Below, piece after piece: positions 1 to 10,621 of a stretch of 10,621 nucleotides of DNA. Position numbers and translations under genes: made by a program. Where the stretch lies: NCBI GenBank assembly GCA_018302685.1, contig JAGVZK010000005.1:1-10621 (forward strand). The letters are read 5' to 3'. Numbering within the stretch: position 1 is the first letter of the stretch; every line of letters starts with the position of its first letter. Source of the DNA: Candidatus Woesearchaeota archaeon (GTDB taxonomy: Archaea; Nanobdellota; Nanobdellia; SCGC-AAA011-G17; GW2011-AR20). The notes beneath the pieces are model-generated. The model was not told where the DNA came from. It saw only the letters and a program-made list of their open reading frames with translations, and did not search any database.

Positions 1-110
1 CCTTAGGAAAAACTCCAGCAGAAGAGGCAGGATTTGCTATTGACTTAGGAAAGAATAAGTGGAGAAAGTTGATAGAAATAGCCTCTTATTTCAAAAATTA
101 TGCCCCGTAG
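1..110 (+). CDS. 3' end of an unknown plus-strand gene, partial and entering from the left edge
   Basis: Frame 3 is open from the window edge to TAG at 108..110 (…LGKTPAEEAGFAIDLGKNKWRKLIEIASYFKNYAP*). It is convergent with the minus-strand operon. No recognisable motif. Confidence 0.3.
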   Translation, partial: LGKTPAEEAGFAIDLGKNKWRKLIEIASYFKNYAP

Positions 111-207
111 AGTTTACATTACACTAAAACTATTCAATGAGAAAATCATTCAAATGATTTAATTTATCTTTGTTGGTTCTGTCAGAATTGAGAGATAAAT
201 CGTTTTC

Positions 208-216
208 AAAAAAAAA
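208..216 (-). terminator. Oligo-T tract (T9 on the minus strand) just downstream of the last operon gene, a possible intrinsic or archaeal-type terminator
   Basis: The minus strand reads TAA-TTCTTTC-TTTTTTTTT right after the DsbA stop (224..226). It is the only long T-run at the 3' end of the 9-kb gene string. No strong hairpin precedes it. Confidence 0.3.
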
Positions 217-223
217 GAAAGAA

Positions 224-928
224 TTAAAGCTGGGTTTCTATCACCTGCTGAAAGTTAGCGAATGGCTGTGCACCGCTGACAGGCACATTCCCAACAAGGA
301 AATAAGGAGTCCCTCTTCCGCCGGAAGCTGATGCGTCTTTCAAATCATTTTGTATTTCACTAGCATACTTCTGGCTGTCAAAGCATTCATTGAACTGTCC
401 GGTGTTTAATCCAAGATCAACTGCAAACTGTTTCAATAATGATTCGCTCAGAGATGCCTGATTCGTGAATATCATGTTGTGGTATTCCCAGAACATTCCC
501 TGCTCATCCGCGCACTCGGAAGCCAGCGCTGAAGGCATGGCCATGGGATGGAAGCTTAATGGAAAATCCCTGTACACAAACTTCACTTTTCCGGTGTCAA
601 TATACTGCTCCTTTATCTGCTGAAATGCATCCTCGTGAAACCTTCCGCAGTAGGGGCATTGAAAGTCCGAAAACTCAACTATTGTCAGCGGAGCATTCTT
701 ATCTCCTAAAAAGGGATCATCATCAGTGTATTCCTGAGCAGACACTTCAATGATTCCTTCGTTCCCTTGAGCTGTTGGTGCAGTATTTGCATCCGCTACA
801 GCCTCAGTGCTACTGTTTCCAAATCCTCCGGTTGATATTGAAATCACAAGCAGGACAACAAGAACACCGCTTATTATCTGCCACATCGTGGATTTTTTTA
901 TCGTGACTTTTTCCTCTTCTTTTGCCAT
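224..928 (-). CDS. DsbA-family thiol:disulfide oxidoreductase (thioredoxin fold), N-terminally membrane-anchored or secreted
   Basis: 234 aa. It has an N-terminal TM/signal anchor (MWQIISGVLVVLLVISIS) and the active-site box FSDFQCPYCGRFH (CPYC). DsbA/BdbD-like blocks include IVEFSDFQCPYC, VKFVYRDFPL and GTPYFLVG (cis-Pro loop). A strong SD (AAGGAGGT) lies upstream of the ATG at 928. Confidence 0.85.
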   Translation of the reverse strand: MAKEEEKVTIKKSTMWQIISGVLVVLLVISISTGGFGNSSTEAVADANTAPTAQGNEGIIEVSAQEYTDDDPFLGDKNAPLTIVEFSDFQCPYCGRFHEDAFQQIKEQYIDTGKVKFVYRDFPLSFHPMAMPSALASECADEQGMFWEYHNMIFTNQASLSESLLKQFAVDLGLNTGQFNECFDSQKYASEIQNDLKDASASGGRGTPYFLVGNVPVSGAQPFANFQQVIETQL

Positions 929-941
929 GTTATAACCTCCT

Positions 942-1370
942 TTATTTAACTATTAGCCTTCCAGCCATGCTGCTGTGGTCTTCCCCGCAGAATACATTGC
1001 AGTAAAATTCAAACTCCCCTTTCTTGTCCGCTATGAATTTCACATCAACGGTTTCTCCCGGATTTAGATATTCATTAACCCCAAATTCAGATATTGCAAT
1101 CCCATGGGCCACATCAACGCTTTCAACATGAAGGATTACTCTGTCGCCTTCATTCACAGTTATCACTGACGGCTCAAATTCCCACTGCCTTGCAATTATA
1201 TCAAATTCCTTTACACTAACCGGCTCATTGATGTCTTCCATTTCTTGCTTGGAAATGCTGTTTCCTGAAACCTGAGCTTCATAAGAAACGCCCTCAGTAT
1301 TGCCATCGGGAGACGAGCACCCTGTTGTAAGCACTGCCAGCAAAAAAATAACAATAAAGTAGCTTTTCAT
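942..1370 (-). CDS. Stand-alone CuA-type cupredoxin domain protein (CoxII-like soluble domain), probable lipoprotein or secreted
   Basis: 142 aa. The signal peptide has a lipobox-like LTTGC. The motif VAH-x34-C-NVF-C-GED-H-SS-M exactly matches the CuA consensus H-x34-C-x3-C-x3-H-x2-M. SD is GAGGTGAT. No oxidase subunit I is present in the window. Confidence 0.8.
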   Translation of the reverse strand: MKSYFIVIFLLAVLTTGCSSPDGNTEGVSYEAQVSGNSISKQEMEDINEPVSVKEFDIIARQWEFEPSVITVNEGDRVILHVESVDVAHGIAISEFGVNEYLNPGETVDVKFIADKKGEFEFYCNVFCGEDHSSMAGRLIVK

Positions 1371-1379
1371 CCTATCACC

Positions 1380-1472
1380 TCAGCAGCATTCGCAGCCAGC
1401 TCCGCATGAGCAGTCTGACTTCATTTCAGCTTTTCTCTTCCTCTCATCTTTTTCTTTCATCTTGTCCTCCAT
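1380..1472 (-). CDS. Unannotated Cys-rich micro-protein (26-32 aa), a putative metallothionein-like metal-binding peptide
   Basis: My own translation of the minus strand gives MEDKMKEKDERKRKAEMKSDCSCGAGCECC*. The 5 Cys sit in the last 10 residues. An internal ATG at 1460 has a GGAGGA box 5 nt upstream and is the likeliest start (26 aa), and an in-frame ATG also exists at 1478. The ORF fills the copA-cupredoxin gap exactly, and its 3' end (TGAGGTGATAGG) supplies the SD of the next gene. Confidence 0.55.
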   Translation of the reverse strand: MEDKMKEKDERKRKAEMKSDCSCGAGCECC

Positions 1473-1493
1473 TAGCATTATAGAAATACAATT

Positions 1494-3491
1494 TTACTTA
1501 CCTTTGTTTGGTATATAAATTTTTCTAAAGTATTTGTTCAATGACCCCCTTAACAGATTTGCATTCGTGACAACAGTTATGCTTGACAGCGCCATTGCAA
1601 TTTCAGCTATTACAGGATGCAGTAATCCTGCCACAGCCAGCGGAATTGCGACCGTATTGTATGCAAAGGCCCAGAATAGATTCTGCTTTATTTTCTTGAA
1701 TGTCAATTTTGACAGATAGATTGACTCAACAACTCCCATCAAAGATCCTTTTGCAAGTACTATGTCGCCGGCCTCTATTGCGATATCAGTTCCTGTGCCC
1801 ATTGCAATCCCCACATTTGACTGCTTCAATGCAGGAGCGTCATTGATTCCATCACCTACAAAAGCAACCATCCCCTCTTTCTGGAGCTTCATAACAATTT
1901 TCGCCTTGTCTTCGGGAAGGACGTTTGCAACAAAGTCCTTTATTCCAACTTCTCCTGAGATTGCGCGGGCGGTCCTTTCATTGTCTCCTGTAATCATCAC
2001 AGTCTTATATCCATCTTTGTTAAGTCTTTCAACCGCATTTTTGGAGTCGTCCTTGACAGCATCAGCGACCGCGATAAACCCTATCACTTTTCCGTTCTCC
2101 GAGATTATCATCAGCGTTTTCCCCTGATCCTCAAATTTCTCTATGGTTTCTGAGTGGCTCTTTATGCTGATATTCCTTTCGTTCATGAGGGTTCTGTTGC
2201 CTATGACTATGTATTTTTTGCCGATATATCCCTCTACGCCTCTTCCTCTCAGAACTTTGAAATTTTTGACATTTTTGTATTTTTTCATGTTAATGTTTTC
2301 AACTATCGCCTTTGCGATTGGATGTCCGCTAAGCCTTTCAAGGCTTGCAGCAGTTTCCAAGAGATATTCTTTTTTGACATTTTCAGGATGAATATCAGTC
2401 AGTTGGGGCTTTCCTTTTGTGATTGTTCCTGTTTTGTCAAATACGACTGTTTTGACTTCCTTCATTGTCTGTATCGCCTCACCCTTTCTTATTAAAATTC
2501 CATTTTTGGCGCCCATCCCCGAGCCTGCCATCAGCGCTATCGGTGTAGCCAGCCCCAAAGCACATGGGCATGCAATTACCAAAACAGAAATTCCAATGCT
2601 TAATGCCCTGCTTAAATCCTGGCTGAACATCCACCAGTTGAAGAAAACAATGATTGTCAGCATGAGGATTATGGGAACAAAAATTCCCGTAATCTTGTCT
2701 GCTAATTTCTGAATTGGAATTTTTGTCCCCTGGGCTTCCTCAACCAATTTTACTATGTGTGCCAGGAATGTATCTTTTCCTATTTTTACAGCCCTTACAT
2801 ATAAAATCCCATCCTGATTTATTGTGGCTCCGATCACGTTATCCCCTTTCATTTTTTCAGAGGGAATGCTCTCTCCAGTGATCATGCTCTCATCAACAGA
2901 GCTTTCGCCTTTTGTTACAATGCCGTCTGTTGGGATTTTTTCCCCAGGCTTTATCACCATGATATCGCCTATCTTTATTTCAGAAACAGGAATTTTAGTT
3001 TCCTCGTCGTCTTTCAGTACTACCGCGCTCTTTGCCCCTAGCTCAAGCAATTTTTTTATCTCTGAGCTCGCTTTCCCCTTTGCTTTTGCCTCTACATATT
3101 TCCCTGTTATGAATATAGCCATTATCATCGAGGAAATTCCGGAATAATTCTGGGCAATATCGAAAAAACTCAGGAATCCAGTCAGGTATGCAACAATGGT
3201 TCCTAAAGAGATAAGAGAGTCCATGCTGAAGTAAAGGCTATAAAAACCCCTCAGCCCTCCTCTTATAGTTTCAAAACCGAATATAAATATTACCGGAAAT
3301 CCAAGAGCCAGAAGGATTATGTTCATTGACTGCTTAGGGGCAAGATCTATTCCAAGCAGTGCTCCTGAATACATGAATAAAACAATTGGAATCGTGAACA
3401 GCCACGCTCCGACAAGCCTCTTCTTCCAACCCCTTATTTCTTTTTCTTCTAGGGATAATTCACTGTGATCATGTCCGGAATGATTATGCAT
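1494..3491 (-). CDS. copA: Cu(I)/Ag(I)-exporting P1B-1-type ATPase
   Basis: 665 aa. P-type motifs are TGES, DKTGT, MITGDN and GDGINDAP. The P1B-1 metal-site signature is complete: CPC in TM6 ([11 protein letters not shown]), YN-x4-P (YNTVAIP) and M-x2-SS-x5-N ([11 protein letters not shown]). The N-terminus is His-rich ([11 protein letters not shown]) and there is no fused HMA domain. The start overlaps the copZ stop (ATGCATAA). Confidence 0.95.
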
Positions 3492-3702
3492 TTTCTATCG
3501 ATGCCACCTTGTAACCTGCTCTTGAAACTGCTTTTTTAAGATCATCATTGGTTACACTGTCTTCAGCTTCAACGTATCCTTTTCTCATGACGAGGTTGAC
3601 ATTTGCATCCTTGACTCCGGAAACTTTTTTCAGGCTCCTTTCTATGTTGGATGCGCACGATGCACAGTGCATTCCTTCAATCATTAATTTTATTTTTTTC
3701 AT
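3484..3702 (-). CDS. copZ: HMA-domain copper chaperone
   Basis: 72 aa. It has [15 protein letters not shown] (the GMxCxxC metal-binding loop) and a length typical of a ferredoxin-like fold. It is translationally coupled to copA by an 8-nt overlap. Confidence 0.9.
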
Positions 3703-3711
3703 ATTTCCCCC

Positions 3712-3834
3712 CTATTTCTTATTCGGTTTCTGAATTTGTTTTGCCAGGTAGAATATTAACAGCACAAGCGCTATGACCACTAATATCCACATTACAAATC
3801 CAAAAAACCACATCCCATTGTAGTAATTAATCAT
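3712..3834 (-). CDS. Unannotated 40-aa single-TM micro-protein
   Basis: My own translation gives MINYYNGMWFFGFVMWILVVIALVLLIFYLAKQIQKPNKK*. A GGGGGCTGAGAAT box precedes the ATG at 3834. The ORF fills the gap between the cupredoxin-like gene and copZ. It has a clean aromatic/hydrophobic helix and a basic tail. Confidence 0.5.
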   Translation of the reverse strand: MINYYNGMWFFGFVMWILVVIALVLLIFYLAKQIQKPNKK

Positions 3835-3855
3835 ATTCTCAGCCCCCAATAATTT

Positions 3856-4230
3856 TTATTCAACTATTATTGTCCCAGTCCCCATCCCCATTGCGCACGC
3901 AAATCTGAATGTTCCTTTCTTGTCGGGGACAAATTCAACGTAATCCTCAGGCGTTCTTAAATTCTTTGAGACTCCAAAGTCTCTTATCGTAAATGACCTA
4001 TAGCACCCTGTAATGCTGCTGTCCAGCCTTATTCTGACAGGAATTCCTTTTTTTACAGTGATTGTATTTGGATAATAATTGTAATTCCTCATACTCAGTG
4101 TTATTTCCTGTATGATATCATCCTCTTTTGCCCCATCAGGATTTCCTTTTCCATTTCCATTCACAAACACAAACGCTCCGACCGATATAATAATGGCCAC
4201 TATTATCAGCAATATTGTTGTATTTTTCAT
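3856..4230 (-). CDS. Membrane-anchored cupredoxin-like protein with a Cys/Met-substituted metal site, paralog of 942..1370
   Basis: 124 aa with an N-terminal TM. It shares the DKKG-x-F-x-F-x-C block with the CuA cupredoxin (PDKKGTFRFAC versus ADKKGEFEFYC). The ligand pattern is C-x35-C-x-M-x-M (ITGCY…FACAMGMGTG) instead of H…CxxxCxxxHxxM. It has an ATGA-type overlap with the upstream gene. Confidence 0.65.
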   Translation of the reverse strand: MKNTTILLIIVAIIISVGAFVFVNGNGKGNPDGAKEDDIIQEITLSMRNYNYYPNTITVKKGIPVRIRLDSSITGCYRSFTIRDFGVSKNLRTPEDYVEFVPDKKGTFRFACAMGMGTGTIIVE

Positions 4231-4910
4231 CAGAATATTCCCCCTCTTGGTCCAAAGACAATCATCAGCGATGTCAATGAGGTTAATATCAAGCTTGCAA
4301 ATAAAGTGAACACATAGTCCTCCTTTACCATCCTCTCGCTTTCTTTTGTTTCTTTGTAGATCATGTAGTTCAATCCAATTAATATGACGCCTGATATTAT
4401 AAATACAATTACGGACGCTTCTTTCAGATGGTCATTTACCATCATAACAGAGCTCATTGCCCCCATTATTCCCCCCATGAAGCCAGCAGTTATCCCCTCC
4501 ATGAATCCCATAATCCCACAGCAAAGGCCATTGTAAATCCCGAATGTTATTCCAACAATCATCCCAAAAACACTTCCCCAGAACATGCCATTTGCAGCAC
4601 CAATGTAAAATCCCGCTAAAAATCCAGAGATCATTCCAACTGTCATTCCTATCATCATTCCAGACATGCATGCAAATTCCCTGTATGCTCTTACTTGCCT
4701 TATTGATGGCAGCAATATTGCATAGCTCAAAACAGAAAGAAATATCAGCAATCCATATCTAGGCATAAACTCCTCTATATACCGGAATTTTACAAAATAA
4801 AGAAGAGCCAGTAGTCCGAATGATATTAATAAAGAGTAGAGTATAGTTCTTATCAGTTCACCCTCAACCCTATTTCCATTCAACTCCCTTGCAAATAATT
4901 TCAAGCTCAT
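4230..4910 (-). CDS. Polytopic membrane protein with Gly/Met-rich (glycine-zipper-like) helices, unknown function
   Basis: 226 aa with about 6 hydrophobic segments. The central region is MSGMMIGMTVGMISGFLAGFYIGAANGMFWGSVFGMIVGITFGIYNGLCCGIMGFMEGITAGFMGGIMGAMSSVMM, with repeated GxxxG/M spacing and one CC pair. I recognise no family. Confidence 0.6.
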   Translation of the reverse strand: MSLKLFARELNGNRVEGELIRTILYSLLISFGLLALLYFVKFRYIEEFMPRYGLLIFLSVLSYAILLPSIRQVRAYREFACMSGMMIGMTVGMISGFLAGFYIGAANGMFWGSVFGMIVGITFGIYNGLCCGIMGFMEGITAGFMGGIMGAMSSVMMVNDHLKEASVIVFIISGVILIGLNYMIYKETKESERMVKEDYVFTLFASLILTSLTSLMIVFGPRGGIF

Positions 4911-4917
4911 ATTTTAC

Positions 4918-5214
4918 CTACCCCTTTATTCTATTGTAAATCATTGCAAATAAATATCCTGCGATAAGGGATAATGCAATTATTTCAATTAATCCTAAAA
5001 TCGTGTCTATAAATGGTAAAGACTCTTCTGCTATCCTGCTTATATCTATCCCATGAAATAAAAACCCAAATGCCTTCACCATCCCTGCTGGAAAGATCGC
5101 AATTAAGATAGCGCAGAGAATATATATGACCCCAAATGTTCCTGCCAAACTGAAGGCAAATTTTTTTTCATTTAACTTATTCCCCACTTTTGTCATCCCC
5201 CTTATTTTTACCAT
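4918..5214 (-). CDS. Small two-TM membrane protein that resembles the DUF5676 family
   Basis: 98 aa or less. Alternative starts are ATG 5196 and GTG 5187, which has GGGGGA 8 nt upstream. It has two TM helices, and the C-terminal …GYLFAMIYNRIKG resembles the …WLYN end I recall for DUF5676. The family call is from memory only. Confidence 0.55.
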   Translation of the reverse strand: MVKIRGMTKVGNKLNEKKFAFSLAGTFGVIYILCAILIAIFPAGMVKAFGFLFHGIDISRIAEESLPFIDTILGLIEIIALSLIAGYLFAMIYNRIKG

Positions 5215-5392
5215 GACCTCGAAAGTGATGCTTCATCACTATAATATGCAAAACAATCATTAATATAACTATCGCCATGATTGTAAATTTGCTGGAAATG
5301 CCTAAAAATGATATTGCCGATACTAGAACAAATGGAATTAAGCACGCCAAAGTCATCATTATTATGTGAACATGCTCTTTTTTATGCGGCAT
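5177..5392 (-). CDS. Small His-rich two-TM membrane protein
   Basis: 71 aa with MPHKKEHVH at the N-terminus and MKHHFRGHGKNKGDD at the C-terminus. HIIMMTLACLIPFVL resembles the H-x-MM-x-(C/A)C-x-x-P small proteins often found near heavy-metal ATPases. AAGGGGGA lies 9 nt upstream. It overlaps both neighbours. Confidence 0.55.
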   Translation of the reverse strand: MPHKKEHVHIIMMTLACLIPFVLVSAISFLGISSKFTIMAIVILMIVLHIIVMKHHFRGHGKNKGDDKSGE

Positions 5393-5909
5393 CTTGATTA
5401 ATCCCCCTTGGTTTGCATAAACTATTGATTGACATTCCAGTAAGGTAGATTGAAATAAGCAATATTAAAATTCCAAAAAGCTGAAGCTCAACCCCTTTAA
5501 ATGGAAAATACATGAGAGTAAATGGAAGTCCTATCAACCCAAACAAAAATGCTCCGCAGGTAGGGCATCCAACCCCAAATGCACTGATCCCGGATCCAAT
5601 AAATCCAAGAAACCCTTTCCCAGTAATTTTATTATGCAATCTAAATTTAAATAAGATCATAGAGAGCAATATTCCAGATAATGCAGAGGTAGCCAAGATG
5701 GAAGCCACACTAAAGGTTATAAAAGTAGGCCCGGACATCATTATGGATGTCCATAAACTATTATGCGCAACTTTGGCAACTAAAAAATAATATAATACTG
5801 CAAATATCAATATGCCTGAGACTAAACTGATTATTTTGTATCTTCTCCCGGTTAGAGCCAGGCCAATGCCTATGTTAAATTCCCTGAGATTTTCCTTTAT
5901 TGCAGTCAT
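5382..5909 (-). CDS. Polytopic membrane protein with an intramembrane CPTC motif, unknown family
   Basis: 175 aa with 4-5 TM segments. The pair sits in a Gly-rich helix start (GSGISAFGVGCPTCGAFLFGLIGLP). Its architecture loosely parallels the 145-aa protein at 6121..6558. Confidence 0.6.
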   Translation of the reverse strand: MTAIKENLREFNIGIGLALTGRRYKIISLVSGILIFAVLYYFLVAKVAHNSLWTSIMMSGPTFITFSVASILATSALSGILLSMILFKFRLHNKITGKGFLGFIGSGISAFGVGCPTCGAFLFGLIGLPFTLMYFPFKGVELQLFGILILLISIYLTGMSINSLCKPRGINQDAA

Positions 5910-5918
5910 TTTATTAAA

Positions 5919-6128
5919 TTATTCCAAGCATTCTTTGTAAATATTGGGATGATGACTCATATGCTCTCTCCATGATTCTTCAGTGTATCCTGACTCTGGT
6001 GAGCATTTGTCTTCCAAACCTTTTCCAGAGTCTTTCCATGCCTGAATTATTCCAGGAAAGAATGTTAAAAGCAAAAGCCCTACTATCAGCAGGCAGGCAA
6101 TGACATACAAAATTATTCTTTTATCCAT
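5919..6128 (-). CDS. Small TM-anchored protein with a Cys/His/Met tail
   Basis: 69 aa with an N-terminal TM (IILYVIACLLIVGLLLLTFF). The tail is …EDKCSPESGYTEESWREHMSHHPNIYKECLE, with two Cys flanking an HMSHH box. AGGAGGA lies 7 nt upstream. There is an 8-nt overlap with the upstream gene. Confidence 0.6.
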   Translation of the reverse strand: MDKRIILYVIACLLIVGLLLLTFFPGIIQAWKDSGKGLEDKCSPESGYTEESWREHMSHHPNIYKECLE

Positions 6129-6558
6129 TTTTCATTCCTCCTTTCATTTTTCTTTTATGCCTTAGCATGATCATTATTCCAATTATGTTGGACAATATTC
6201 CTACTCCTAAAAACCAGGGCTGATATCTTGCCAGAAAAGTCGCCAGTACAGAAGCCCCTGCAAGAGGAATTATTTGAAGCAAAAAATGAGAGCAACAAGC
6301 AATCATGCTCCCTCCAGATATTGCACTCGTCCCAGCAACAGTTCCTGTAAGCTGTGCGGTATGTTTAATCGAAAAATATAATCCTATTTGTATTCCAAAT
6401 CCTGCGGCAAGGGGAAAAATCAGGTACCATAGGCCCCTCAGATTGAGAAGAGCAAATTCAATACCCCTAAAAATGCTTACAACGCCGAGGTAAAAAACAA
6501 GCAACCCAACCCCTGCCATCAATCCATACAGTGTTGCATTGCTTCTATTATTCTTCAT
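6121..6558 (-). CDS. Four-TM membrane protein with an intramembrane vicinal Cys pair (ACCSH), MerT-like in logic only
   Basis: 145 aa. GGSMIACCSHFLLQIIPLAG places CC-x-H at the start of a helix followed by Pro, as in CC-x-x-P metal-uptake helices. Homology was not established. Confidence 0.6.
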   Translation of the reverse strand: MKNNRSNATLYGLMAGVGLLVFYLGVVSIFRGIEFALLNLRGLWYLIFPLAAGFGIQIGLYFSIKHTAQLTGTVAGTSAISGGSMIACCSHFLLQIIPLAGASVLATFLARYQPWFLGVGILSNIIGIMIMLRHKRKMKGGMKNG

Positions 6559-6560
6559 TT

Positions 6561-7034
6561 TTATTCATTGCAACATTCAAGCAGTTTTTTGATGGAGGAG
6601 AAAATTCCTTTTTTCTCGCTGCCTTTTATTTCTACATTTTTTGAGGAGGAATTTAATTCCCAGAACAATCCATACAGTTCAGCGGAATCATGGTACATCC
6701 CCTTTGCCTCTTCTTCCTTTCCTTCATGAAATAATCTGTTAGCTGTCTCGTACAACCTCATGCTCGAGGCAAGAAAATGCTTGCTCATGCACCATTTCTC
6801 GCTTTCATCGTCTTTTTTTACAATTAGCAACATTAGATTTTTTCTCAACTCCCTGACTACGTCCAAAATTCTAAGAAATTTCTCATCTTTGGTTTTTGCA
6901 TAGCTGAAAAAGCAGTGCTCTTCAAGGCTTACAAGGTTCATAAGGCCAATGCTAAGATCTTCCCATACAGAAATATCTAATCCATTCTTTTTCTTTATTT
7001 CATCTATTTTTTTTATGAAGTTTTCCGATTTCAT
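6561..7034 (-). CDS. Soluble, probably cytoplasmic alpha-helical protein of unknown function ending in CC
   Basis: 157 aa with no hydrophobic segment. It is charged and helical, with EEHCFF, EKWCMSKH and C-terminal LLECCNE. Apart from CopZ and the Cys-rich micro-proteins at 1380..1472 and 8212..8322, it is the only clearly soluble non-secreted product in the operon. Confidence 0.6.
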   Translation of the reverse strand: MKSENFIKKIDEIKKKNGLDISVWEDLSIGLMNLVSLEEHCFFSYAKTKDEKFLRILDVVRELRKNLMLLIVKKDDESEKWCMSKHFLASSMRLYETANRLFHEGKEEEAKGMYHDSAELYGLFWELNSSSKNVEIKGSEKKGIFSSIKKLLECCNE

Positions 7035-7035
7035 T

Positions 7036-7554
7036 TTAAATAAACTGTATTATTAATGATGCAGCTATTAAAATCAAAAATGTTAATATAATCCCTTGAA
7101 ACGGTATTCTTATGGTTGTTTTTTCCTTTATTTTCCTGTTTAGCAAGGGTGGAATAAAAACTATCAAGCCTCCAAGAAAACTGCTTAGCAATGATAAATC
7201 AATTACATATGTCTTGTTGAGCAAAGTTCCATAACCCCCTGTTAAATTAACACCAAATCCAGCTACACTGGAAAAAATTGGCAGTAAAGGAATTATTGTT
7301 GCTAGGAAAACAATTGTTATTATCAAGGTTTTCTGAAATGGAATATATCTCTTCTTCACAATTTTTGCAAACCACATTCCCATTGACATTGCAAAGGCGC
7401 CAATTAACAGCCCTATAACGATCCTGCTTACTCCAAGATAAACCCCTCCGGCTGCAGCAACTCCGGCGGTTACTGTGCATAATGGGCAGTGGGCATCAGC
7501 ATATCTGGAGAAAGCAAGCGATGCAATGAAAAATAAAGAAATTAATTTTTTCAT
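7036..7554 (-). CDS. Polytopic membrane protein with an HCPLC motif at the predicted mature N-terminus
   Basis: 172 aa. The signal-like N-terminus MKKLISLFFIASLAFSRYADA is followed immediately by HCPLCT and then 4-5 TM helices. It has an ATGA overlap with the DUF411 gene. Confidence 0.6.
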   Translation of the reverse strand: MKKLISLFFIASLAFSRYADAHCPLCTVTAGVAAAGGVYLGVSRIVIGLLIGAFAMSMGMWFAKIVKKRYIPFQKTLIITIVFLATIIPLLPIFSSVAGFGVNLTGGYGTLLNKTYVIDLSLLSSFLGGLIVFIPPLLNRKIKEKTTIRIPFQGIILTFLILIAASLIIQFI

Positions 7555-8033
7555 ATTCTCATGAATTCATCATAGCTTCCATCATTGTTAACCTGATAAA
7601 CAATAAAGTCGCTTTTTTTTGTTCCAGGCATCCCAGGGCTCCCTGAAGGCATTCCAGGCATTGCAATCCCCTTTATGTCAGGCTTTTCCATCATTAATCT
7701 CTCTACAGCCTCCAATGGGATATGGCCCTCAATAAAATAATCTCCTATGATTGTTGTATGGCAACTTTCCAGTTCCAGAGGAATTTCGTATTCCTGTTTT
7801 ATTGAATCAATGCTCTCCATGCTGATTATTTCAGTTTCGGAATTTCCCTTACTCCTAAAATAGCTTGAATAGACTCCGCAGCATCCGCAGCTCCCTGATT
7901 TGTAAAGTTTTATTTCTCCCTGAAAATTCCTGACATTTTCAAAACTGCTTGCCTTGTCTGCATTAATGGCAAAAATTCCTATGACAACAGTCGATAAGAT
8001 TATTACGGCCCATATCATTGATTTTTTCTTCAT
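7551..8033 (-). CDS. copG: DUF411 / CopG-family copper-binding protein, membrane-anchored or secreted
   Basis: 160 aa with an N-terminal TM. The diagnostic DUF411 blocks are CGCCGVY, SCHTTIIGDYFIEGHIPLEAVERL and KGIAMPGMPSGSPGM. Confidence 0.85.
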   Translation of the reverse strand: MKKKSMIWAVIILSTVVIGIFAINADKASSFENVRNFQGEIKLYKSGSCGCCGVYSSYFRSKGNSETEIISMESIDSIKQEYEIPLELESCHTTIIGDYFIEGHIPLEAVERLMMEKPDIKGIAMPGMPSGSPGMPGTKKSDFIVYQVNNDGSYDEFMRI

Positions 8034-8210
8034 TTAGCACCCTCCAACCATTCCACCATATGATACTGCACTTTGCGCCGCAGAGCCCGCTGCCTGCACT
8101 GTTTCAACACCTACTCCGGCTTTAAAGCTCAGGAATAATGCGGCAATAAAAAGCACTCCAATAGCTATCCATAGCGTAGTTTTTCTGTTCATAATGTTTA
8201 TATTATTCAT
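8034..8210 (-). CDS. Unannotated 58-aa TM-anchored protein ending in -GGMVGGC, paralog of 8324..8566
   Basis: My own translation gives MNNINIMNRKTTLWIAIGVLFIAALFLSFKAGVGVETVQAAGSAAQSAVSYGGMVGGC*. AAGGAGGT lies 5 nt upstream of ATG 8210, and an alternative ATG is at 8192. The TAA stop abuts the copG ATG. It aligns with the 80-aa protein at the TM segment, the AGVxG box and the tail. Confidence 0.65.
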   Translation of the reverse strand: MNNINIMNRKTTLWIAIGVLFIAALFLSFKAGVGVETVQAAGSAAQSAVSYGGMVGGC

Positions 8211-8211
8211 T

Positions 8212-8322
8212 TTATACCTCCTTGATTTTCTTATTGGACTTTTTTCTCACAAATCGAAATAAACTCTTGTTTTCGAGATCCTTACAACATTCTTCCTCAT
8301 CTTTCGTTTTGCAACAATTCAT
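8212..8322 (-). CDS. 36-aa Cys-pair micro-protein (CC-x8-CC) with a basic tail
   Basis: MNCCKTKDEEECCKDLENKSLFRFVRKKSNKKIKEV*. The supplied 64-aa ORF (8212..8406) overlaps the 80-aa gene. The internal ATG at 8322 lies 1 nt after that gene's stop with GGAGGG upstream. The same TAAAATGAAT junction recurs at the next gene boundary. Confidence 0.5.
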   Translation of the reverse strand: MNCCKTKDEEECCKDLENKSLFRFVRKKSNKKIKEV

Positions 8323-8323
8323 T

Positions 8324-8566
8324 TTAACACCCTCCCACCATTCCATTGGAACTGCTTCGAGCTGCTCCGCTGCCGGCCTTAGCTGGAATTGTTCCATGCA
8401 TTTCATAGTTCATTATTTCATTTTCTGTCCAGCCGGAAGTGTCTATTTTATCTTCGTTGGGCAATTGTGCAACCACATTTCCGGTTACACCTGCCTGAAA
8501 TACAAAAAATGAAACAACTAAAAATAGCATTCCAATAATGCTCCATAAAATTGTTCGTTCTTCCAT
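8324..8566 (-). CDS. 80-aa TM-anchored protein ending in -NGMVGGC
   Basis: MEERTILWSIIGMLFLVVSFFVFQAGVTGN…AKAGSGAARSSSNGMVGGC*. Its ATG abuts the TAG of the upstream gene, with GGGGGG 7 nt upstream. It is a paralog of the 58-aa protein with a ~25-aa insert (…DTSGWTENEIMNYEMHGTIP). Confidence 0.7.
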   Translation of the reverse strand: MEERTILWSIIGMLFLVVSFFVFQAGVTGNVVAQLPNEDKIDTSGWTENEIMNYEMHGTIPAKAGSGAARSSSNGMVGGC

Positions 8567-9235
8567 CTAACAGCCCCCCACCATTTGTCCGTCAGAAGTT
8601 TGTCCTTGTTCAATGCCCCTGTAAAGGTTAGAAGCTAAGTTGATGTAATTTGTGAAATCAACACCATTTGCTTTAAGTATATCCGCCTTCTGCTCATGTA
8701 TTCCAGGGAAGAACAGAACTTTCCATTTCCCTAATTCGGACAGTATTTCTTCATTAGACATTTCCGGATGATTTATCAGCAGATACTTTGCAACACCCCT
8801 CATTGCATAACTATGTGCGCATCCGCACGCCCTCTCTCCGTTTGAGAAAATTATCGCCTTTGCACCGCAGCAGTATTCACACGATATTGAGCTGCCAATC
8901 CCAATGTATCTTGCCATTTGTTCCTGATTCAGATCCATATCTTCATATTGTGATAATTTCCTTATTGTAGCATCTGCAAGTCCGGGATTACCCGCAGAAA
9001 TATCATCGTACCTTACCCCTATTTCTACCCCATAAACTGCCGGCATTCCTTTAGGGATTATCTCTGATGCAGAAACAATCCCAACACCAGTAGCGATTCC
9101 ATTTTCAGAATAAATTCTTCCAACATTGAACACGATTACCAGTGCCAAAATAGCCATTATACCTAGCTGCACATAAAATTCCGTGTTTTCATTTTTTGCC
9201 TTGCTTGAGTTTTTCATGATAATCTTCCAGAACAA
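8567..9235 (-). CDS. First operon gene: TM-anchored extracytoplasmic Cys-rich domain protein ending in -DGQMVGGC
   Basis: 222 aa, or 216 aa from ATG 9217. It has an N-terminal TM (LGIMAILALVIVFNV). The Cys cluster is SCEYCCGAKAIIFSNGERACGCAHSYAMRG (C-x2-CC … C-x-C-x-H), reminiscent of PCYCGC-type motif proteins by memory only. The C-terminus is QMVGGC*. Confidence 0.7.
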   Translation of the reverse strand: MFWKIIMKNSSKAKNENTEFYVQLGIMAILALVIVFNVGRIYSENGIATGVGIVSASEIIPKGMPAVYGVEIGVRYDDISAGNPGLADATIRKLSQYEDMDLNQEQMARYIGIGSSISCEYCCGAKAIIFSNGERACGCAHSYAMRGVAKYLLINHPEMSNEEILSELGKWKVLFFPGIHEQKADILKANGVDFTNYINLASNLYRGIEQGQTSDGQMVGGC

Positions 9236-9307
9236 GAATTATATAACTCCTTTTGTGAAACTAGTTTCAACAGCAAGATTTTTAAAGATCATATTAAAAA
9301 AAGATGT
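9236..9307. promoter_or_regulatory. Divergent promoter/operator region containing a perfect 14-bp palindrome TGAAACTAGTTTCA (9256..9269)
   Basis: This is the only sizeable non-coding gap flanking the operon. The A/T-rich TATA-like box TTTTTAAAGA / TTTAAAAATC (about 9279..9288) reads on both strands. It lies ~25 nt upstream of the regulator ATG at 9308, consistent with a leaderless archaeal-type mRNA. The palindrome sits between that box and the operon start. Confidence 0.45.
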
Positions 9308-9796
9308 ATGGAAAATAAATACGTTGGATACTTATTAATGGGGATTTCTATACTGGTTATAGTTATCATATTATTGTTTAACTCCACACTGAAAGAAATT
9401 GTGAAAGAGAGCTGTGGGGAAGCTCACGGTTTAACATGCCCAATGAATGAAACTGTGAATGAACAGACATACCTTGCATTGGGGGTTGTTGGCCTACTGA
9501 TAATAGTGAGCCTTGTTTTGATATTCTCAAAGCCCCAGAAAGAAATTATTTTCAAGACAAGAACAATAGAGAAAAAAGCCAAAAAGAAAAAGATTGATAC
9601 AAGCGGATTAAAGCCAGAAGAAAAGATGGTTTTGGAGATTATCCAAAAGGATAAGGCGGTTTTTCAGGCTGACCTAATAGAGAAGACGGAGTTTGGGAAG
9701 GCAAAGATGACAAGAATAATTGACAGGCTTGAGGGAAAGGAATTCGTTGAAAGGAAGAGAAGAGGATTGACAAATGTTGTTGTTATGAAGGATTAA
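9308..9796 (+). CDS. Membrane-tethered winged-helix (MarR/TrmB-like) transcriptional regulator with a Cys/His/Met extracytoplasmic loop
   Basis: 162 aa. TM1 is YLLMGISILVIVIILLF, the loop is …KESCGEAHGLTCPMNE… and TM2 is LALGVVGLLIIVSLVLIF. After a Lys-rich linker comes a C-terminal wHTH: EEKMVLEIIQKDKAVFQADLIEKTEFGKAKMTRIIDRLEGKEFVERKRRGLTNVVVMK. It is divergent from the operon. Confidence 0.7.
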   Translation: MENKYVGYLLMGISILVIVIILLFNSTLKEIVKESCGEAHGLTCPMNETVNEQTYLALGVVGLLIIVSLVLIFSKPQKEIIFKTRTIEKKAKKKKIDTSGLKPEEKMVLEIIQKDKAVFQADLIEKTEFGKAKMTRIIDRLEGKEFVERKRRGLTNVVVMKD

Positions 9797-9831
9797 ATGT
9801 TTAAACCACAAAGTTATCCTAATAAGAAATT

Positions 9832-10325
9832 TCAAATTGAGAATGCGTGAAATAAATAATTTGTTTTTATGGCAAAGTTGTCACGGACTTCTTTCTTAGT
9901 AAGGCTGTCTAATTCAAGGAATCTTGATCTATAGTGCAGAAGCATAGATTCCACGCTAATTACTCGTTCTCTATCGAGATGCTTGTCTTCCCTCATTTTT
10001 AATTTCCTAGCTTTTTCAAGATAGTGATTAGTTTCTAAAAATCTTTTTATTGTTTTGTATGACTTTCTTATCTTTTCTTTGTATTTTTTTCCAAATCTCT
10101 TATACTTATCTTTGAAAAATTACTCCCTAAATTGCACATATCTTTTGTGATAACTCTTCCACATTTTCTTACAGATATCATTAAAGAGTAATATTTTTTG
10201 TCTCCTATCTTTTTTACATGGATATATTCCATACATAATGAATTATGCAATAATATGCAAATATCCCTCTTACAATTTAATTTTGAAAAGTAGTGGGATA
10301 AACCTGAAGAAAAATTGATGTTCAT
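9832..10325 (-). pseudogene. Frameshifted and probably truncated gene remnant in a very AT-rich stretch (possibly Fic-like or mobile-element-associated, uncertain)
   Basis: The 85-aa ORF (10068..10325) contains IHVKKIGDKKYYSLMISVRKCGRVITKDMCNLG. It stops at 10068, but a second frame is open from ~10115 to TGA 9832..9834. That frame reads …KYKEKIRKSYKTIKRFLETNHYLEKARKLKMREDKHLDRERVISVESMLLHYRSRFLELDSLTKKEVRDNFAIKTNYLFHAFSI*. The two frames overlap across an A7 homopolymer (forward T7 at 10085..10091). Confidence 0.35.
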
Positions 10326-10381
10326 TTAGTATCTTTTTAATTAAGCGGGGGACCTATTTTGTTTTTAAGTTTTCTTGATTT

Positions 10382-10621
<240 letters not shown>

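Follow-up and report, generated by a model that had tools for sequence, protein, structure and literature searches.

CopR regulates archaeal cop clusters. The protein from Pyrococcus furiosus (PF0739) joins an Lrp-type helix-turn-helix (HTH) to a TRASH domain (PMC7830388). It is soluble and octameric, reads cytoplasmic copper through the C-terminal TRASH domain and wraps about 150 bp of DNA carrying a weak semi-palindromic motif (PMC7830388). Here we analyse a 10,621-nucleotide stretch of DNA, referred to throughout as the window, from a Candidatus Woesearchaeota archaeon (assembly GCA_018302685.1, contig JAGVZK010000005.1, positions 1 to 10,621 of the forward strand). A gene in this window, which we call the regulator, encodes a predicted membrane-tethered winged helix-turn-helix (wHTH) protein. 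It lies divergent from a copper-handling operon, and the intergenic region between them contains a 14-bp perfect palindrome, TGAAACTAGTTTCA. We consider it probable, with some reservation, that this transmembrane one-component regulator controls the copper-efflux and copper-handling operon through the palindrome, its putative operator.

The layout of the locus resembles that of CopR. In both cases the regulator is divergent from copA/copZ and shares a short intergenic region with them, with 96 bp between the start sites in P. furiosus and 91 bp between the ATG codons here. CopR binds upstream of the target promoter and is presumed to respond to copper, as is predicted for the present regulator. 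The position beside copA/copZ by which CopR and CopT are recognised is also that of the regulator gene, the divergent arrangement predominating. Unlike CopR, the regulator is predicted to be membrane-tethered, with candidate ligands that face outward and a single, strictly conserved 14-bp palindrome. No HTH_AsnC or TRASH match was found in it with Pfam or NCBIfam, and it has only two cysteines, eight residues apart. It appears to fill the role that CopR has in other archaeal cop clusters.

A second point of comparison is how copper is sensed. The one-component copper sensors CueR, CopY, CsoR, BxmR (ArsR family) and ComR monitor intracellular copper, and extracytoplasmic copper sensing is assigned to two-component systems and extracytoplasmic function (ECF) sigma factors (PMC10141476). 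Among these, the CusS/CopS two-component systems sense extracytoplasmic copper and induce efflux genes (PMC10141476). They use a histidine kinase and a response regulator, with a folded periplasmic domain, whereas here a single 162-residue polypeptide would do both jobs. A preliminary description of this DNA, made from the sequence alone, had set the regulator apart from the cytoplasmic CsoR, CopY, CueR and ArsR-type sensors, and that contrast holds (PMC10141476).

Membrane-tethered one-component regulators are themselves well described. These transmembrane transcription regulators (TTRs) include ToxR, TcpP and CadC in bacteria and ArnR/ArnR1 in Sulfolobus (PMC10269533, PMC6396743). In archaea, 1,384 TTRs have been counted in 367 species (PMC10269533), with Sulfolobus ArnR/ArnR1 as characterised examples (PMC6396743). 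A TTR is defined by a predicted DNA-binding domain and at least one predicted transmembrane (TM) region in one polypeptide (Demey et al. 2023, PMC10269533), and the regulator combines a wHTH with two hydrophobic helices. As in other TTRs, the DNA-binding domain of a one-component protein is held at the membrane, which means that the promoter has to be contacted there. In ToxR and CadC an OmpR-type wHTH at the N-terminus is followed by a single TM helix and then by a folded periplasmic sensor domain at the C-terminus, a type to which the regulator does not belong. ArnR starts with an HTH, continues with a HAMP-like region and ends in TM helices. The regulator reverses this order, with an N-terminal two-TM hairpin and a C-terminal MarR-like wHTH, and its sensor would be a turn of about eight residues. 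Our literature search found no TTR described as regulating copper efflux, and no paper on the palindrome, on DUF7343, on this regulator family or on copper regulators of DPANN archaea or Woesearchaeota. The membrane-tethered one-component design is thus already known, while the sensor module and the biological target are new.

A membrane hairpin joined to a minimal winged helix

The features of the regulator are as follows, with residue numbers referring to the 162-residue protein and structural assignments to an AlphaFold2 (AF2) model. The model has a mean predicted local distance difference test score (pLDDT) of 82 and was built from a 104-sequence alignment.

9308..9796, plus strand: regulator gene, predicted membrane hairpin plus linker plus minimal winged helix (from the open reading frame (ORF) list; 162 residues plus stop)
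9323..9379, plus strand: predicted TM helix 1, residues ~6-24 (hydropathy peak at residues 9-23; AF2 helix 3-36, pLDDT >90)
9413..9445, plus strand: tip of the outward loop, C36-G-E-A-H40-G-L-T-C44-P45-M46, putative Cu(I)/thiol sensor site (from conservation and the AF2 turn between helices 3-36 and 45-72)
9473..9529, plus strand: predicted TM helix 2, residues ~56-74 (hydropathy peak at residues 58-72; AF2 helix 45-72)
9530..9613, plus strand: Lys-rich juxtamembrane linker, residues 75-102 (no secondary structure in the AF2 model; pLDDT <50 at residues 80-93)
9614..9787, plus strand: predicted minimal wHTH, residues 103-160 (AF2 helices 103-115, 120-127 and 131-143)

The DNA-binding end is identified by profile matches. 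DUF7343 matches residues 103-160 at 31.4 bits (cut-off 27.6), and MarR and MarR_2 (PF01047/PF12802) match residues 99-151 at 28.7 bits (cut-off 24.6) and 28.8 bits (cut-off 27), all in Pfam; NCBIfam gave weak wHTH matches only. PF24034 is precomputed for nearly all homologs of the regulator. In the model, residues 131-143 form the recognition helix and residues 147-160 the wing, and the chain stops right after the wing. The linker retains conserved positions despite its disorder (K75, P76, Q77, E88, K89 and K94). Across the family, the loop between the hydrophobic helices has a mean net charge of -1.4 and the segment after TM helix 2 a mean net charge of +5.6. This bias fits the positive-inside rule and would place the loop outside. 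The turn at residues 37-44 should likewise face outward, because the DNA-binding domain must be cytoplasmic. From sequence and model, then, the regulator is a predicted membrane hairpin with both termini inside, followed by a disordered linker and a bare cytoplasmic winged helix. The preliminary description had proposed two TM helices around an outward loop and a wHTH tethered through a Lys-rich linker, and the hydropathy peaks, Pfam matches, AF2 helices and charge pattern bear out both proposals.

Its further proposal of a MarR/TrmB-like winged helix needs qualification. The core does resemble MarR proteins, a family that includes MexR, MftR and OhrR. MexR residues 29-86 align with regulator residues 95-152 in a PDB profile search (E about 6e-4), MftR superposes with a root-mean-square deviation of 1.2 Å over 67 columns (Foldseek), and public annotation reads 'MarR family'. 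However, MarR proteins are soluble homodimers of about 140-150 residues, whereas the N-terminal 74 residues of the regulator form a membrane hairpin instead. The regulator lacks the dimerisation helices alpha1, alpha5 and alpha6 as well as the ligand pocket, and is predicted to be membrane-embedded. The wHTH part of the proposal therefore stands, as a bare wHTH and not as a full MarR or TrmB protein. Judged by sequence and model, the 'MarR family' label describes the DNA-binding core only, and the regulator is not a canonical MarR. When the whole AF2 model was compared with the PDB using Foldseek, only generic wHTH cores were returned, none with E <=1e-3, and the hairpin was unmatched.

The outward loop, SCGEAHGLTCPMNE at residues 35-48, carries the candidate ligands. 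In the window protein C36 and C44 are the sole cysteines and H40 is the sole histidine. The preliminary description had read the loop as C-x2-H-x3-C-x-M; the Cys, His and Met residues are present, and their spacing is C-x3-H-x3-C-P-M. It had also made its proposal depend on conservation of these residues among homologs, which is what we find. In 121 aligned sequences C36, C44, P45 and Q53 are invariant, and H40 and M46 are each present in 108. The broader sample, which also underlies the locus counts below, consists of 80 fetched loci (L001-L080; 1.19 Mb) from 122 genomes with relatives of the regulator. A C…CP motif occurs in 66 of the 80, C…C-[T/E/Q]-M variants make up most of the others, and the loop pair provides the only cysteines in 71 of the 80 proteins. 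A histidine stands between the two cysteines in 62 of the 66 C…CP loops, and Cys-Pro is followed by Met in 55 and by Ala in 9. The spacing between the cysteines varies from 6 to 11 residues across loci. Relatives at about 35-45% identity still retain C-x-H-G-x2-C-[PTS]-M. Conservation at the sequence level thus extends to each of the four candidate ligands (C, H, C and M). The turn is small, with about 8 residues at the tip of an extracytoplasmic loop of about 30 residues overall.

Cys-His-Cys in CsoR and CxxxC plus His in Sco are Cu(I) ligand sets, and the two cysteines and one histidine of the loop, optionally with the methionine, form a comparable candidate set. Fold and location are unrelated, the residues here lying in a short turn that joins two TM helices outside the cytoplasm. 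Searches of Pfam, NCBIfam and PDB profiles showed no similarity of the regulator, in sequence or profile, to Sco or to the CsoR family, whose Cu(I) site sits in a DUF156 four-helix bundle.

The family is compact in both architecture and distribution. One search returned 616 homologs, the best 120 of which have 63-99% identity and lengths of about 160-167 residues, and relatives were present in 122 species-representative genomes scanned. By record title, the 80 loci come from Woesearchaeota, Pacearchaeota, Nanoarchaeota and unclassified archaea, plus one bin labelled Patescibacteria. The locus from that bin (L046) has the regulator, the operator and cop genes, and is probably a mis-binned archaeal contig. 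Two further loci, L039 and L060, lie on the same contig (JAYONY010000002.1), where two regulator copies about 25 kb apart each have their own operator and cop module. A HMMER search with the N-terminal 88 residues against 1.84 billion representatives matched 83 proteins and found no hairpin fused to another output domain. All 83 have the same short architecture and at most 172 residues, except P0177 (308 residues), a tandem-repeat protein that we take as an artefact rather than a longer architecture. A second candidate, the metagenomic protein P0164 (168 residues), might have been a sensor-pump fusion, as its hairpin (..CSHSPTCPMW..) runs into a C-terminal fragment of CopA, a P-type ATPase (..GINDAPALA..). 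More probably it is a chimera of assembly or gene calling. On balance, we favour the view that these proteins are a previously uncharacterised family of transmembrane one-component regulators confined to Woese- and Pacearchaeota (Nanoarchaeota in GTDB).

A conserved palindrome linked to copper genes

The intergenic region contains the palindrome and two divergent putative promoters, each with a TATA box and a B recognition element (BRE).

9239..9255, minus strand: predicted operon promoter, BRE CAAAAGGAG (9255..9247) and TATA box TTATATAA (9246..9239), 22-38 nt upstream of ATG 9217; leaderless
9256..9269, no strand: 14-bp perfect palindrome, putative operator, exact here and unique in the window
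9270..9286, plus strand: predicted regulator promoter, A-rich BRE-like element (9270-9278) and TATA box TTTTTAAA (9279-9286), at -29..-22 from ATG 9308; leaderless

The palindrome consists of the half-sites TGAAAC-TA-GTTTCA. Its presence, as first described, is exact, although its significance cannot be taken from the window itself. Dinucleotide shuffles of the window contain a mean of 0.99 perfect 14-bp palindromes, at least one occurs in 65% of shuffles, and matches with three mismatches elsewhere in the window are also at chance level. Significance comes instead from conservation across species. The 1.19 Mb of homologous loci contain 60 exact copies of the 14-mer, against a composition-based chance expectation of about 0.02. 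The consensus of 73 aligned sites is TGAAACTAGTTTCA-CAAAAG-nGC-TTATATA. Palindrome bases are conserved at 96-100%, the A-run at 88-100% and the TATA box at 67-100%, and the opposite flank is unconserved (32-52%).

The geometry is as constant as the sequence. The distance from the palindrome to the ATG of the downstream gene is 37 nt at 42 sites and 38 nt at 12, together 54 of the 73. Spacing to the BRE is zero, and the palindrome never lies over the TATA box or the start site. Judged by its sequence, the adjoining element is a canonical archaeal BRE/TATA pair that would drive a leaderless mRNA. The BRE lies on the palindrome side of the TATA box, which sets the promoter direction, in the window leftward to the operon. 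The palindrome is upstream of this operon promoter, at -39..-52. Since promoter spacing is fixed in homologous loci, the divergent gene is best started at ATG 9217, not at the listed TTG 9235, and the intergenic region is 9218..9307. Two details of the preliminary description are corrected by this. It had given the region as 9236..9307, and had placed the palindrome between a TATA box and the operon start, whereas the palindrome is upstream of two divergent promoters.

The window is symmetric about the palindrome. The minus-strand ATG (9217) and the plus-strand ATG (9308) are each 38 nt from it, with AT-rich boxes 22-29 nt from each ATG. On the regulator side, 80 upstream regions anchored at the ATG have A at -33/-32 (76-86%) and TTTTTAAA at -29..-22 (55-85%), and this consensus is also found in loci without a palindrome there. 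The distance from the palindrome to the regulator ATG is variable, mostly 34-42 nt and at most about 130 nt. Where regulator and operon are co-directional, as for example in L076, L078 and L052, the palindrome follows the regulator stop codon, ahead of the operon. Second copies occur in L018 and L025, at internal promoters before the gene of a Met-rich membrane protein. From these positions, the palindrome is assigned to the operon promoter rather than to the regulator promoter. An RNA hairpin or terminator was considered and rejected, as the 7-bp stem has no loop, lies upstream of leaderless starts and keeps a fixed DNA-level spacing to the BRE and TATA box. In several loci (L003, L016, L047 and L060) an isolated half-site, GTTTCA(C), directly precedes the regulator BRE/TATA. 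This mimics the operon-side geometry and hints at autoregulation through a half-operator.

The operon across from the regulator is a copper module. It has the following members, all on the minus strand.

224..9217, minus strand: predicted divergent target operon (Pfam matches; homologs flank the regulator in 71/80 loci)
8567-9217, 8324-8566 and 8034-8210, minus strand: MVGGC-tailed proteins
7551-8033, minus strand: DUF411 protein (Pfam)
within 224..9217, minus strand: several Cys/Met-rich membrane proteins
4230-4910, minus strand: Met-rich membrane protein, 226 residues
3856-4230, minus strand: cupredoxin-like protein
3484-3702, minus strand: CopZ
1494-3491, minus strand: CopA P1B ATPase
942-1370, minus strand: CuA-like cupredoxin
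224-928, minus strand: DsbA-like protein (thioredoxin), at the operon end

Pfam finds HMA, cupredoxin, DUF411 and DsbA domains in this operon. The CopA translation carries CPC, N-x6-YN-x4-P and M-x2-SS, which we take to be signatures of Cu+/Ag+ P1B-1 pumps. The window proteins were compared by BLASTP with the ORFs of the 80 loci. Homologs of the Met-rich membrane protein, the commonest neighbour of the regulator, occur in 54 loci, those of the cupredoxin-like protein (3856) in 52, of CopZ in 51 and of CopA in 49 (within 10 kb). The DUF411 protein has homologs in 22, the DsbA-like protein in 19 and the MVGGC-tailed proteins in 13-25. Where at least 5 kb is available on both sides (n=40), 38 loci have at least one homolog of an operon gene and 31 have CopA (within 10 kb). 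Usually the regulator is divergent from a membrane protein-cupredoxin-CopZ-CopA set. A second layout, that of the window, has it divergent from a longer operon with two or three MVGGC genes, DUF411 and further genes up to CopA, and in a minority the regulator is co-directional and heads the operon.

The first gene after the palindrome is the Met-rich membrane protein at 39 sites and an MVGGC protein at 19. Elsewhere it is a DsbB-like protein (L011, L029 and L074), a small Met/His-rich protein (L038, L046, L058 and L060) or a multicopper-oxidase-like protein (L060). Taken by their sequences, these genes form what is probably a coherent extracytoplasmic copper-handling regulon. Extra operator copies were seen in L060 (9875, 8441 and 5523), L058 (261), L038 (7833) and L035 (14453). 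The genes behind them encode a multicopper-oxidase-like protein, a 599-residue secreted protein and several small Met/His-rich proteins. With extra copies at such varied genes, the regulon would be larger and more varied than the window operon.

The association also holds when the search starts from the DNA. Metagenome contigs were scanned with the 20-mer TGAAACTAGTTTCACAAAAG, which spans the operator and BRE, and at least 119 loci were found. The regulator is encoded in 76 of the 89 listed loci that have at least 650 nt of distal flank, and is divergent just upstream in 73 of the 119 listed. The downstream gene in the listed loci is the Met-rich membrane protein in 45 and an MVGGC protein in 34. 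The exceptions without a regulator mostly look like internal promoters. Regulator, operator and cop genes are therefore linked in both directions, and the palindrome emerges as a conserved cis element tied to the copper operon and the regulator, as had been proposed, by its 60 exact copies, its fixed geometry and this reverse scan.

The strictly conserved palindrome co-occurs with the regulator gene in the adjoining intergenic region, and Pfam and NCBIfam profile scans detected no other DNA-binding protein in the window operon. Loci with the exact palindrome have a near-invariant recognition helix, GKAK[MIV]TRI[IL]DRLE. Members of a divergent subclade with the helix GKV[GK].TRLLDKLE for the most part depart from the palindrome, carrying TGTAAC or GTTACA as half-site or CCAG at the centre (L035, L037, L043, L052, L055, L066, L068 and L071). 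This co-variation of helix and half-site suggests that the regulator recognises the palindrome directly.

Proposed mechanism and its alternatives

We infer DNA binding by the regulator, copper as its ligand and the sign of regulation from the conserved sequences and their context. Each of two protomers would set its winged helix on one half-site of TGAAAC-TA-GTTTCA. In the pseudo-periplasm, a Cys2-His(-Met) site in the loop would capture Cu(I) (step 1). Once bound, the metal would change how the hairpins pair or pack, and this would in turn alter the occupancy of the operator by the two winged helices, or their geometry on it (step 2). The outcome could be copper-dependent activation, by aiding the binding of transcription factor B (TFB) and the TATA-binding protein (TBP) (step 3). 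We lean only slightly towards activation over copper-released repression, because the site is strictly upstream of the BRE at a constant spacing and the wHTH itself lacks a dimerisation domain. In its fullest form, the proposal is that one 162-residue chain is a complete Cu(I) sensor and transcription factor: copper-bridged hairpins would assemble the wHTHs on the palindrome and recruit TFB/TBP, taking the place of CopR in Nanoarchaeota (Woese- and Pacearchaeales). We hold this full version tentatively, at somewhat less than an even chance.

Several points weigh against this scheme. Every functional step rests on conservation and gene context, and the co-variation of helix and operator was counted without phylogenetic correction. 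Allostery would be poorly conveyed by a disordered linker of about 30 residues. The AF2 model is monomeric, and dimerisation through the hairpin is assumed. The histidine is absent in about 10% of members, and Ala, Ile or Leu replaces the methionine in about 15-20%. Extracytoplasmic Cys pairs are often disulfides, and with DsbA- and DsbB-like genes in the regulon a redox switch would be equally compatible. Finally, the near-consensus BRE/TATA suggests an intrinsically strong promoter, which fits repression better.

Repression is accordingly a serious contender, though one we would not quite back. In this alternative a tethered dimer sits on the palindrome when copper is absent, its wings occlude the BRE and block TFB, and copper bound at the loop weakens the dimer so that both promoters are released. 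Repression is the typical role of MarR-type winged helices, the operator-adjacent BRE/TATA is near enough to consensus that an activator is probably unneeded, and where the palindrome is 34 nt from the regulator ATG it overlaps the regulator BRE. Yet the palindrome never covers the TATA box or the start and has zero spacing to the BRE, and for a wHTH that lacks a dimerisation domain, induced pairing lends itself more readily to switching on than to switching off. TFB-RF1, SurR and TrmBL1 all activate from upstream sites. More generally, archaeal factors that bind strictly upstream of the BRE, such as Ptr2, are usually activators, and the archaeal analogue CopR activates copA (PMC7830388).

Two further alternatives change the signal rather than its sign. 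Thiol oxidation could be what is sensed, with the same protein, operator and regulon: the loop cysteines would pass between a dithiol and an intra- or intermolecular disulfide that sets dimerisation and activity. Periplasmic cysteines modulate the activity of ToxR, TcpP and CadC, and here oxidation could be catalysed by copper or by Dsb-like machinery. The Cys pair is the most conserved feature of the loop, His and Met being dispensable in some members, and its variable spacing of 6-11 residues is easier to reconcile with a disulfide than with a defined metal site. DsbA-like genes are found in 19 loci, DsbB-like genes directly behind the operator in three, and a DsbA-like thioredoxin closes the window operon itself. 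However, His and Met are kept at only about 35% identity, which goes beyond what a simple disulfide accounts for, and Cu(I) efflux and Cu-binding proteins predominate in the regulon. In the anoxic groundwater and sediment that are the main habitat of these lineages, external thiols can remain reduced. We regard a redox signal as less likely than copper, yet as a serious alternative. More doubtful still, and to our minds improbable, is that the hairpin is a mere anchor with a structural disulfide, the signal coming from a partner (the Met-rich membrane protein, or CopA/CopZ), or the palindrome being bound by a different factor. The loop is indeed tiny, and the Met-rich membrane protein of 54/80 loci is usually directly divergent from the regulator. 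Against this, ligand-type C, H, C and M are deeply conserved, regulator and operator also co-occur with other first genes (MVGGC, DsbB-like and multicopper-oxidase-like), the window operon has no other detected DNA-binding protein, and the recognition helix and half-sites show suggestive co-variation.

If copper sensing by the hairpin is correct, one small polypeptide would both detect copper or thiol stress outside the cell and act directly on DNA, a third and very compact sensing solution. In archaea it would be the first membrane-tethered metal sensor to be described, and in any organism the first one-component transmembrane copper sensor. DPANN archaea have few recognisable regulators and, to our knowledge, no transcription factor with a known operator. 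The regulator family, an exact candidate operator abutting the BRE and a defined regulon make nanoarchaeal transcription control testable in vitro. The operator can also flag new copper-handling genes, such as those for MVGGC-tailed proteins, the Met-rich membrane protein and DUF411, and the minimal sensor could serve as a biosensor scaffold.

Neighbouring genes and unusual operon proteins

Genes on the far side of the regulator (9832-10621) are not conserved beside it (0-2 of 80 loci). Two short ORFs there, 9832-9996 and 10068-10325, have no family matches, and one further gene runs off the window end.

10382-10621, minus strand: C-terminal part of a trypsin-like (HtrA/DegP-type) serine protease

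Regulated proteolysis by this protease was considered and set aside, as the gene is common to only 2/80 loci.

Within the operon, the protein at 942-1370 (minus strand) has a COX2-domain match and a CuA-type ligand pattern, C-x3-C-x3-H-x2-M (CNVFCGEDHSSM). No other oxidase subunits were found beside it within the window. The Met-rich membrane protein (4230-4910) has no Pfam match. Met and Gly are very abundant in its TM helices, as in GMMIGMTVGMISG and GFMGGIMGAMSSVMMV, and it is a candidate Cu(I) channel or sensor partner.

Three operon genes in a row encode proteins that have a TM helix at the N-terminus and share the C-terminal pentapeptide MVGGC before the stop. They have no match in Pfam or NCBIfam. 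Among the ORFs of the 80 loci, 56 terminate in [G/A/S]MVGGC, and the tail is retained by nearly all homologs; it may bind Cu(I) or act as a signal for processing or lipidation. L001 and L005 each have a single ORF that encodes both a Cys-rich leader (MDCCK..ECC..) and an MVGGC-tailed protein. The window equivalent of this leader, MNCCKTKDEEECCKD, lies in ORF 8212-8406 (minus strand), in another frame than the MVGGC protein at 8034-8210 (minus strand). The split may reflect a frameshift, a sequencing error or a genuinely split gene.

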